A stretch of DNA of 26,579 nt from Pseudomonadota bacterium (lineage in GTDB: Bacteria > Pseudomonadota > Alphaproteobacteria > Caulobacterales > Caulobacteraceae), in assembly GCA_041182125.1 (NCBI GenBank), contig JBEGOG010000034.1, positions 1 through 26,579 of the forward strand, in the 5' to 3' direction. This document shows positions 6,848-17,000 of this stretch, in pieces; the stretch's first letter is position 1, and the number at the start of each line of letters is the position of its first letter. Position numbers and translations under genes: made by a program. Below the pieces are notes generated by a model. That model did not search any database, was not told the DNA's origin, and saw only the letters and a program-made list of their open reading frames with translations.

Positions 6848-6898
6848 GGCTCACCTCTGCCCTTTGCCAAACGCCCAGACCGGTGCATGTTCTATCCT

Positions 6899-7585
6899 AT
6901 GGCTCAACATAAGACCCTGCTGATCATCGACGACGATGAGGACCTGCGCTCCGCCCTTGCCGAGCAACTGGACCTACACGACGAATTCAACACCGTTCAG
7001 GCGCAAAATGCCATCGATGGGCTGCGTTTGGCGCAAGAGATTAAGCCAGACCTGATCCTGCTGGATGTGGACTTGCCGGATATGGACGGCCGCGATGCCT
7101 GTCAGCAAATGCGTCTGGTAGGCGTCACGGCCCCCGTGATCATGCTGACCGCTGCCGATACGGATACAGACACGATCCGAGGCCTAGAGTCTGGGGCCAA
7201 TGACTATGTCACCAAGCCCTTCAAGTTTCAGGTTCTGGTGGCCCGTATCCGTGCCCAACTTCGCGTCCACGAACAGTCTGAGGATGCGGTCTATCGGCTT
7301 GGCCCCTATGAGTTTCGCCCGTCTGCCAAGCTCTTGGTGGATGCCAAGCAAAAGAAGATCCGGCTGACCGAAAAGGAAGCCAATATCCTGAAATATCTCT
7401 ATCGCGCCGGGACCAAGTCGGTGTCGCGCGAGGAACTCTTGGCCGAGGTCTGGGGCTATAATGCCGGCGTGACCACCCACACGCTAGAAACCCATGTCTA
7501 TCGTTTGCGTCAAAAGATCGAGCCGGAGACGGGGTCGCAGAAACTGCTCCTGACCGAGCCCGGCGGCTATCGCCTCGCGCCCTAG
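6899..7585 (+). CDS. cenR: OmpR-family response regulator, CenR orthologue
   Basis: Receiver domain (IIDDD, LLDVDLPDMDG, KPF) plus winged helix (LTEKE, VWGY, THTLETHVYRLRQKIE); sequence and neighbourhood match cenR of Caulobacter as recalled. Start ATG 6899. Confidence 0.82.
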   Translation: MAQHKTLLIIDDDEDLRSALAEQLDLHDEFNTVQAQNAIDGLRLAQEIKPDLILLDVDLPDMDGRDACQQMRLVGVTAPVIMLTAADTDTDTIRGLESGANDYVTKPFKFQVLVARIRAQLRVHEQSEDAVYRLGPYEFRPSAKLLVDAKQKKIRLTEKEANILKYLYRAGTKSVSREELLAEVWGYNAGVTTHTLETHVYRLRQKIEPETGSQKLLLTEPGGYRLAP

Positions 7586-8388
7586 ACCATCAAATCGGCC
7601 GTGACGGGCACGTGATCACTGGGTCGTTCCCACTCGCGCACCGTGTCATGGACCATCGAAGAGACCGAGCCTTGCGCAAAGGCGGCGTCTCTTAGGCCCG
7701 GGCTGGCCAAGATGTGATCGAGCCTAAGGCCCCGGTTCGAGGCGCGGAAATCAGCGGCGCGATAGCTCCACCAAGAAAAGAGCTTCTGTGGCTCCGGAAC
7801 CGCTTCGCGGGGCAGGTCCAGAAAGCCGAGTGAGGCCTTGAGCTTGGCCATGGCCTCGATCTCGACGGGCGTATGGCTGACCACCTTGAGCATCTGCTTG
7901 TGGCTCCAGACGTCATTTTCGCCCGGCGCGACATTGAGGTCACCGGTCAGAATCAGGGGAGCCTTGGGGTCACGTTTGGCCATATCTGCGGTCAGGCGCT
8001 CGAAAAAATCCATCTTATGATCGAACTTGGGATTGGCCACGCGGTCAGCCTCGTCACCGCCAGCCGGGATGTAGAAATTGTGGATCTCGACCCCCGCCAC
8101 CTTGACCGCAGCGGTGCGGGCATGGCCCTCACGGCACAGGTCAAGATCCATGCCCTCTTCGAAGGGAAGACGCGAGGCGATGGCCACGCCGTGATAGCTC
8201 TTCTGACCCCGAATAACGAGATGGGGCAGGCCTATGGCCTCAAAGGCTTCGGTCGGAAACTCGCCGTTCTGACATTTGATTTCCTGCAAACAGAGGACAT
8301 CGGGGGCCTGTTCGGCGACAAAGCGCGCGATCTGGTCAAGCCTCAGGCGGACCGAGTTGATGTTCCAGGTGGCGAGGCGAAGGCGCAT
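7582..8388 (-). CDS. xth: Exodeoxyribonuclease III (AP endonuclease)
   Basis: ATWNINSVR, LCLQEIK, GDLNVAP, FSWWSYR, GLRLDHIL, PSDHVPV. Confidence 0.95.
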   Translation of the reverse strand: MRLRLATWNINSVRLRLDQIARFVAEQAPDVLCLQEIKCQNGEFPTEAFEAIGLPHLVIRGQKSYHGVAIASRLPFEEGMDLDLCREGHARTAAVKVAGVEIHNFYIPAGGDEADRVANPKFDHKMDFFERLTADMAKRDPKAPLILTGDLNVAPGENDVWSHKQMLKVVSHTPVEIEAMAKLKASLGFLDLPREAVPEPQKLFSWWSYRAADFRASNRGLRLDHILASPGLRDAAFAQGSVSSMVHDTVREWERPSDHVPVTADLMV

Positions 8389-8440
8389 GGCAAGGGTCCG
8401 GGGTTGGCGGTTGATCCCCTATAGGCCCGTTTGCCACCCG

Positions 8441-8477
8441 AAAAAAAGCCCGGAGCGGGTCAGACCGCTTCCGGGCT
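8441..8477 (-). terminator. Rho-independent terminator
   Basis: Minus strand AGCCCGGAAGCGG-TCTGAC-CCGCTCCGGGCT followed by a U-tract (A7 at 8441-8447 on plus). Confidence 0.85.
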
Positions 8478-8563
8478 AAAAAGTAGACGTTCACACCGAT
8501 GTCGGGAGGGGATGTAATCCGACATAGGATCAAGCGGCACAGGGGAATATGCCGCCGCCTAGT
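8441..8563 (-). ncRNA. Candidate trans-acting small RNA (~120 nt), family not identified
   Basis: Own promoter (8569-8597); hairpin 1 GCGGCA-UAUUCCCCUG-UGCCGC (8534-8555); hairpin 2 AUGUCGG-AUUACAUCCCCUC-CCGACAU (8499-8525); U5 stretch then intrinsic terminator. 5' end estimated from the -10 element. Confidence 0.72.
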
Positions 8564-8568
8564 GTGAC

Positions 8569-8597
8569 CTTATAGACACGCCAGCATATAAAGTCAA
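8569..8597 (-). promoter_or_regulatory. sigma70-type promoter TTGACT-N17-TATAAG
   Basis: -35 at 8597-8592, -10 at 8574-8569, 17-nt spacer; points at the candidate sRNA. Confidence 0.75.
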
Positions 8598-8640
8598 GGT
8601 GAATCACGGTTTTCCTTGCCTGTCGTCAAAATGTCACAGA

Positions 8641-9330
8641 TCAGCGCCGGGTCTTCGCCGATCCTGGCGCGAGGCTGCGAGGGTCGACCAAGACAAACAG
8701 GGCAGGGTCTAGGCCTGAGGCAGCGGAAAACTGTTCCAAATCAATGCGGGTGGTCTGTCCTTGAGCATCGGTGACGGTCCAAGACTTCAGGGCCACGGGG
8801 CTTGATGAGAAGGTCAAAACAATGCGTCCCTCCGCCTCCTTGCGGCCATCCCGGGCCGTAATGGCAAAGCTATCGGCGCTGCGGGTCACCCGGTCGATGA
8901 TCACACCGCGATCAAGGCGGATTTCTCGAGCCAAAAGCAGGGCTAAGGGCGTGGTGCCCAAGGGATAGCGGTCAAAGGTCTTTAGCCGACTGTCCGCGAT
9001 GGAGACATTGAAACCATCGGACACGACGAGCAGCCCCAGCGGCGGGTCATAGGCAAAGCGCATCTTGCCGGGCCGCTTGAGGTAAAGGTCGCCCCGGCTC
9101 TTGGTGCCAAAGGGATCGGTTTGAACAAACCGGCCTCGGGCCTGTCCCAGCGATTGCAGATAGGCGCTGGCCTTTGCGACCAGGGCCTTGTCGTCTGCCG
9201 ATAGGGCCACCGCGCTCGACCGGACTGGCTGAGCGGAAGCGACGGCGGGCGCGCCAAGACATAGGAGCGCAATCAGGCTCACGATCCGGATGGAGCGGCT
9301 CATTGGGCGGTGGGGCGATTGGGTCATCAT
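8641..9330 (-). CDS. lolA: Outer membrane lipoprotein carrier protein LolA
   Basis: Signal peptide, GRFVQT, YLKRPGKMRFAY, VSDG motifs; downstream of ftsK as is conserved. Exact start (9330/9327/9303) uncertain. Confidence 0.88.
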   Translation of the reverse strand: MMTQSPHRPMSRSIRIVSLIALLCLGAPAVASAQPVRSSAVALSADDKALVAKASAYLQSLGQARGRFVQTDPFGTKSRGDLYLKRPGKMRFAYDPPLGLLVVSDGFNVSIADSRLKTFDRYPLGTTPLALLLAREIRLDRGVIIDRVTRSADSFAITARDGRKEAEGRIVLTFSSSPVALKSWTVTDAQGQTTRIDLEQFSAASGLDPALFVLVDPRSLAPGSAKTRR

Positions 9331-16925: not shown

Positions 16926-17000
16926 GCGGGCGTAGCTCAGTGGTAGAGCACAACCTTGCCAAGGTTGGGGTCGAGAGTTCGAATCTCTTCGCCCGCTCCA
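16926..17000 (+). tRNA. tRNA-Gly (GCC)
   Basis: Acceptor stem GCGGGCG/CGCCCGC, D arm AGCTCAGTGGTAGAGC, anticodon arm CAACC-TTGCCAA-GGTTG, T arm GTTCGAATC, encoded CCA; 75 nt. Confidence 0.98.

Follow-up and report, generated by a model that had tools for sequence, protein, structure and literature searches.

We are highly confident that the small RNA element on the minus strand of the DNA analysed here, which comes from an uncultured freshwater genus of the Caulobacteraceae, is orthologous to RusT (CCNA_R0199), and that it is transcribed on its own, as a unit of ~120-125 nt located between the genes lolA and xth. The whole stretch of DNA, referred to as the window, is 26,579 nt long. RusT was described in Caulobacter crescentus (C. 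crescentus) by Vogt et al. (2024, mBio 15:e03153-23, PMC11005374), who already reported where the RNA is encoded and that its synteny is family-wide, and who characterised its seed, chaperone, regulator, and targets; thus, the RNA is not new. Briefly, it is sited between CCNA_03820 (lolA) and CCNA_03821 (xth), the lolA-rusT-xth synteny is conserved within the Caulobacteraceae (Figure S4 legend), and the 118-nt RNA has four stem-loops (SL), with the seed at nt 45-57, including C53, and stem-loop 3 at nt 72-87 (PMC11005374). A preliminary description of the same DNA had considered the family of this RNA unassignable; we place it with RusT (CCNA_R0199) and not with AbcR or alpha-r14.

Locus, promoter, and predicted fold

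The intergenic region, read directly, extends from the lolA stop codon (8643-8641) to the xth start at 8388, and the element occupies 8597-8441 on the minus strand. The upstream flanking gene lolA (8641..9330; Pfam LolA, E = 1.9e-30) and the downstream flanking gene xth (exodeoxyribonuclease III, 7582..8388; Pfam Exo_endo_phos, E = 3.3e-27) are both on the minus strand as well, and the Pfam search of the flanking genes placed an FtsK gene beyond lolA, farther upstream of the element. All the parts named in the preliminary description, i.e., a minus-strand promoter, two hairpins with C-rich loops, a linker, and a terminator with a U-tract, were found by direct reading. The sole ORF overlapping the element (8336-8533, 65 aa, TTG start) reads across the terminator into xth, and the lengths of the orthologues differ by non-multiples of three. 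An OmpR-type response regulator gene (6887-7585, plus strand) is convergent with xth (7582-8388, minus strand), their 3' ends overlapping by 4 nt, and this pairing recurs in approximately half of the loci that we fetched, from several genera of Caulobacteraceae.

The promoter consists of a -35 element TTGACT (8592..8597, minus strand) and, after 17 nt, TATAAG (8574-8569). The -10 region as a whole, CTATAAG (8569..8575, minus strand), is aligned opposite the Caulobacter GCATATT region, and this alignment suggests that the -10 element is better taken as CTATAA (8575-8570), with a predicted start near 8564; the latter corresponds to the position in Caulobacter vibrioides (C. vibrioides) that gives the published numbering. 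In 49 Caulobacteraceae genomes, the promoter boxes are conserved (TTGA at least 90%) and the spacer between them is variable, in agreement, at the sequence level, with the own promoter of RusT. Please note that our promoter scan of the window left the rusT promoter unflagged, because the scan demands a T at the last -10 position.

The predicted RusT transcript is ~124 nt long (8441..8564, minus strand), as delimited by a covariance model (CM) match at 8440-8567 (150 bits) and by the alignment to the C. vibrioides locus. Stem-loop 1 (8533..8556, minus strand) has, in the minimum free energy (MFE) fold, the loop UUCCCC at 8547-8542, and all nine of its pairs show compensatory changes among 74 distinct sequences; the preliminary description was right about the C-rich nature of this loop, but its size of 10 nt resulted from two weak closing pairs left open. 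Stem-loop 2 (8499..8525, minus strand), the RusT seed, has the loop AUUACAUCCCCUC at 8518-8506, in which base 8511 is the equivalent of C53. It is followed by the linker ACGUCUACUUUUU (8478..8490, minus strand), which occupies the site of Caulobacter stem-loop 3 with a diverged sequence, is unpaired in the consensus structure, and is mostly open in the single-sequence MFE fold, its ends alone being in a weak helix. The Rho-independent terminator found by the terminator scan (8441..8477, minus strand) ends in a U7 tail at 8447-8441; 12 out of 12 of its pairs covary in the family, with 97% of cells paired. The fold of the 137-nt stretch has an energy of -55.4 kcal/mol, as compared with -41.1 +/- 3.5 kcal/mol for shuffled sequences (z = -4.07), and none of 200 dinucleotide shuffles was as good.

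The hexamer TCCCCT, which both loops had been described as exposing, occurs 12 times in the window as compared with 15.5 expected, i.e., without enrichment, and therefore finding it twice on the same strand at a distance of 34 nt is by itself just mildly unusual. The element is more than a chance arrangement because conservation across the whole family extends to the promoter boxes, to hairpin 2, and to the terminator.

Conservation and identity as RusT

Of the 12 other genomes in the genus, six gave a BLAST match to the element, at 86-92% identity. Among the window and these six relatives, the -35 element, the -10 element, and both loops are invariant, the promoter spacer varies, and one pair of hairpin 1 runs through a G-C, G-U, A-U series. 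A CM was built from these seven sequences, and it gave one match per genome in 66 of 151 family genomes and in 17 of the 27 genera sampled. Loci were fetched for the best CM matches: the RNA is downstream of lolA in all 30 of them, and xth lies 3' of the RNA on the same strand in 29, the 30th locus ending with its contig. LolA is ~50-60% identical in the genomes of these loci. When named genomes were scanned with a degenerate pattern of the conserved core, all the records returned were of Caulobacteraceae type, and all of them score with the CM; the named matches include C. vibrioides DSM 9893, C. segnis, C. henricii, C. endophyticus, C. zeae, Phenylobacterium species, and a Brevundimonas metagenome-assembled genome (MAG). 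Uncultured Caulobacteraceae MAGs are closest to the window, whose DNA is present in freshwater metagenomes.

The covariation analysis used 74 distinct sequences. In their alignment, which was fitted to the CM and hence is biased towards the structure, 88.9% of cells are paired, as compared with the far lower 38-47% in slid controls, and 30 of the 37 pairs show double changes. Hairpin 2 is almost invariant in sequence, and AUCCCCUCCCG is invariant in a further alignment (A5) and nearly so across 76 CM matches. In this comparison, constraint is seen on the SL2 seed and the terminator as well as on the -35 element and the upstream box (see below), whereas SL1, the linker, and the SL3 region evolve freely; such a map of fixed and free parts would be useful for dissecting RusT.

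The link to RusT was made on the C. vibrioides locus (L047). The reverse complement of the Northern probe KFO-0554 for CCNA_R0199, whose sequence is given in the supplement of PMC11005374, matches exactly at L047:5698-5716, within the CM match and on the modelled strand. If the start is set at L047:5634, the published picture is reproduced: a length of 118-119 nt, four stem-loops, nt 45-57 as the SL2 loop with C53, and SL3 at 72-87. The alignment further indicates that the AUCCCCUCCCG seed of the Caulobacter sequences is present in the window, as are their -35 element and upstream box. The probe match, the reproduced numbering, and the shared seed, -35 element, and box together identify the element as a RusT orthologue.

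The likeness extends to the location between lolA and xth on the strand of both genes, to an own promoter with upstream box and -35 element, to the order SL1-SL2-linker-terminator, to the 3' U-tail, and to the homology in sequence and structure with the C. crescentus RNA. The SL2 loop AUCCCCUCCC is unchanged, including the equivalent of C53 (window base 8511). Out of the four stem-loops of RusT, SL1, SL2, and the terminator are present and covarying, whereas SL3 is unpredicted and amounts at most to a 3-bp GAA/UUU helix. With the CM of the window's clade, the Caulobacter sequences score 47-61 bits (E 1e-8 to 1e-11) and C. vibrioides DSM 9893 scores 47 bits (E = 5e-8); these limited scores indicate that SL1 and the linker are strongly diverged. 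The SL1 loop is ACCGACC in Caulobacter and UUCCCC in the window, the sequence after SL2 is GGCAUGAGAGACUAG in Caulobacter and GGUGUGAACGUCUAC in the window, where the SL3 Hfq contact is unrecognisable, and the length is 118 nt in Caulobacter vs ~124 nt in the window.

The same genomic arrangement could be read as a cis-acting element, i.e., a structured 3' UTR or terminator of lolA or a leader or attenuator of xth: lolA, the RNA, and xth lie on one strand, and the terminator is 53 nt upstream of the xth start. In public RNA-labelled runs, the contigs touching the locus span the promoter and continue from lolA through it into the element, although these are assembled contigs without ends or strand, for which DNA or lolA read-through is possible. 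A contig of 183 nt, from a run whose type is uncertain, extends over 8472-8654, and a lake metatranscriptome yielded contigs of a relative that include lolA and xth and span the promoter. However, in 49 genomes the interval from the lolA stop to the RNA contains conserved -35 and -10 elements whose spacer varies, which speaks for a separate unit, as do the own promoter of C. crescentus RusT (PrusT reporter) and the action of the plasmid-borne RNA in trans on fusions (PMC11005374), and the invariant part of the element is a loop sequence, not a sensing structure. We consider a cis-acting element very improbable, and still more so the two other identities that can be proposed. One is membership in another alphaproteobacterial family with C-rich loops, i.e., alpha-r14 ("cuckoo"), AbcR1/2 (alpha-r15), or ChvR. 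CCUCCC-like loops occur both in alpha-r14 and in the window RNA, cmscan gave a weak ar14 match (E = 0.19), and ChvR, too, represses a TonB receptor in Caulobacter; yet the ar14 match, at 18.2 bits, is far short of the gathering score (58.8), and otherwise only terminator-driven matches appeared at E <= 10. Cuckoo (alpha-r14) RNAs and CcsR occur in several dispersed or tandem copies, whereas the window RNA is single-copy. The other is a novel, unrelated sRNA that merely shares the intergenic region of RusT, for which one may cite that no Rfam family matches and that BLAST alone reaches six of the 12 other genus genomes. It is countered by the CM, which ties the element to the Caulobacter RNA at E 1e-8 to 1e-11, and by an invariant 11-nt seed with shared promoter boxes at equivalent positions; moreover, the alignments are not terminator-driven, the invariant columns being in hairpin 2 and the promoter. 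RusT orthology is the reading that we retain.

Several named candidates were rejected individually. ChvR was suspected for the adjacent OmpR-type regulator and for its TonB-receptor target, and it was ruled out by its locus upstream of recF and its specificity to C. crescentus; chvR lies between CCNA_00157 and recF and is C. crescentus-specific, ChvI-dependent, and Hfq-independent (ChvR paper). ChvR and CrfA of Caulobacter resemble RusT in the post-transcriptional control of outer-membrane TonB-dependent receptors; a sequence relation of the window RNA to ChvR or CrfA was not found. AbnZ, which has C-rich loops, was also rejected. Alpha-r14 (Rfam RF02344), at 18.2 bits, stays below its threshold, and AbcR1/2 (alpha-r15) gave no Rfam match either at the gathering threshold or at E <= 10. 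Alpha-r14 RNAs and Rhodobacter CcsR share with the window RNA the C-rich CCUCC-type hairpin loops mimicking an anti-Shine-Dalgarno sequence, but the window RNA is fixed as a single copy at one syntenic locus, and BLAST against its own genome (a 65%-complete MAG) found no further copies of the kind expected for a multi-copy cuckoo RNA.

A cmscan search against Rfam 15 assigned no family to the element at the gathering threshold, the only such match in the window being a tRNA elsewhere. Rfam 15 is without a model for RusT, and Caulobacter RusT is likewise unrecognised, so automated pipelines will keep missing rusT. The region can be annotated as rusT in the window's MAG and in related MAGs.

Upstream box and the proposed Hfq and NtrX partners

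The lolA stop is immediately followed by a box TGTGAC-N6-ACGACA-GGCAAG (8615..8638, minus strand), which precedes the predicted start by ~50-75 nt. Its consensus among 49 Caulobacteraceae rusT promoters is TGTGAC-N6-nnnACA-nGCAAG, with GTG, ACA, and CAA at least 90% conserved, and in some genera it becomes a perfect TGTGAC-N6-GTCACA palindrome. Except for the spacer and the second half-site, the box is common to the window, to the other subtype of the genus (see below), and to C. vibrioides; it is unmentioned in the main text of PMC11005374. We consider it a candidate operator for NtrX or for another regulator, and a concrete place to look for the rusT operator. A GANTC (CcrM) site, GATTC, is located at 8605-8601, between the box and the -35 element.

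In C. crescentus, the rusT promoter is occupied by NtrX in ChIP-seq, transposon insertions in ntrX lead to constitutive expression, and rusT is induced by dipyridyl and by zinc excess (PMC11005374). RusT is >70-fold enriched in Hfq co-immunoprecipitation, is stabilised by Hfq, and needs Hfq for target repression, the Hfq contact being SL3 (nt 73-84) (PMC11005374). Pulse expression of RusT lowered 19 transcripts, eight of which encode TonB-dependent receptors, and fourteen reporter fusions confirm repression by RusT; the C53G change in the SL2 loop weakens regulation, and compensatory changes rescue CCNA_00210 and ompW (PMC11005374). RusT and RyhB/PrrF are alike in being induced by iron limitation, in depending on Hfq, and in repressing mRNAs, but RusT is NtrX-controlled, without Fur control or a Fur box, and most of its targets are transporters, not iron-using enzymes.

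Regulation has been assayed in C. crescentus; for the window host, from an uncultured freshwater genus, we infer expression, Hfq dependence, NtrX and iron control, and targets by orthology. If the orthologue behaves as RusT does, its transcription would be repressed by NtrX and would go up when iron homeostasis is disturbed, and the RNA would bind Hfq. The single-stranded, anti-Shine-Dalgarno-like AUCCCCUCC loop of SL2 would then pair with G-rich ribosome-binding regions of mRNAs for TonB-dependent receptors, OmpW, an MFS transporter, and some metabolic enzymes, i.e., the targets in C. crescentus, where pairing lowers both translation and mRNA level. The net result may be a remodelled set of outer-membrane transporters under iron limitation. 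The trans-acting, Hfq-type sRNA that the preliminary description proposed, with a C-rich loop directed against the ribosome-binding sites (RBSs) of transporter and TonB-receptor mRNAs, has thus been demonstrated for C. crescentus RusT and is expected here by orthology.

The partners appear to be encoded by the window organism. The same MAG has hfq, on a contig with the gene order AAA+/HTH_8 sigma54-activator-type regulator, class IV aminotransferase, hfq, and hflX, which matches Caulobacter ntrX, CCNA_01818, hfq, and hflX; the regulator, inside whose gene the contig (C212) begins, is probably NtrX. On the RNA side, the Caulobacter sequence GAGAG-ACUAGA-CUUUC (nt 72-87) stands against GUGAACGUCUAC in the window, and SL3 is absent from the predicted fold. 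The Hfq-contact SL3 is therefore not conserved in the window, and Hfq dependence could differ. The internal U-run, which the preliminary description took as an Hfq module, did not hold up: it occurs in only two of the seven closest sequences, and Hfq has been mapped elsewhere on Caulobacter RusT.

Seed loops, predicted targets, and diverged regions

The proposal of two anti-Shine-Dalgarno-like loops stands in part. The hairpin-2 loop is conserved and is the validated seed, but the UUCCCC loop of hairpin 1 is found only in the window's subclade, where it is a possible second seed. Both loops were used in a target scan of 1800 ORF start regions of the MAG, based on home-made gene calls and without an accessibility term. 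With either loop, pairing is better for the TonB-receptor genes whose 5' region is complete (14 genes) than for the other genes (Mann-Whitney p ~0.001), the medians being -10.8 vs -8.6 kcal/mol and -9.95 vs -6.5 kcal/mol for the two loops. This excess holds against a Shine-Dalgarno-bearing background, and none of 16 shuffled seeds reached the same p. A GGGG run at -25 to -1 is present in eight of the 14 TonB-receptor genes vs 219 of the 1786 other ORFs (12%). The loop-only seeds were used instead of a 26-nt seed including the stem arms, with which the target scan was uninformative (p = 0.34). Considering the crude gene calls and the 14 receptors, we take the enrichment as supportive only. G-rich ribosome-binding sites look typical of TonB-receptor genes in this MAG.

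The TonB receptor starting at ATG 17374 had been singled out as a local target. It does have a 6-nt GGGGAA match to loop 1, but it ranks 173 out of 1800 for loop 1 and 609 out of 1800 for loop 2, so that it is a possible but unremarkable target. Directly upstream of this receptor gene lies a tRNA gene (16926-16997, plus strand; Rfam tRNA, 71.6 bits). The top three seed-loop complementarities in the MAG fall on the RBSs of three consecutive ABC-transporter genes (contig C10:2785-6002, minus strand), an operon of two paralogous SBP_bac_8 binding proteins and a permease; one of these sites pairs over 13 of 14 nt (GAGGGGAUGAGAUC, -21.9 kcal/mol) and another is a perfect GGGGAGGGGAU match.

Relative to the published RNA, three things remain mildly new: the second C-rich loop, specific to the subclade, the divergence of the Hfq region, and the conserved operator-like box. 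Tentatively, and as a possibility that we ourselves regard as rather doubtful, the subclade may carry a rewired RusT, with SL1 providing the second anti-Shine-Dalgarno-like loop UUCCCC, SL3 replaced, and Hfq engagement possibly changed; separately, and with the same reserve, the upstream box may be the rusT operator for NtrX or another regulator. If such rewiring is true, the RNA would be a dual-seed regulator whose set of targets has shifted, the strongest predicted sites being on the ABC-transporter operon and on several TonB receptors with GGGG-type RBSs.

A second RusT subtype is present in the same GTDB genus, at G003:C46:21538-21655, G004:C144:7492-7607, and G011:C4:83128-83246, with another hairpin 1 and a ACCCCCUU linker. 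With the window-type model its score is as low as ~37 bits, indicating that hairpin 1 and the linker turn over fast and that the seed and the promoter boxes are fixed.
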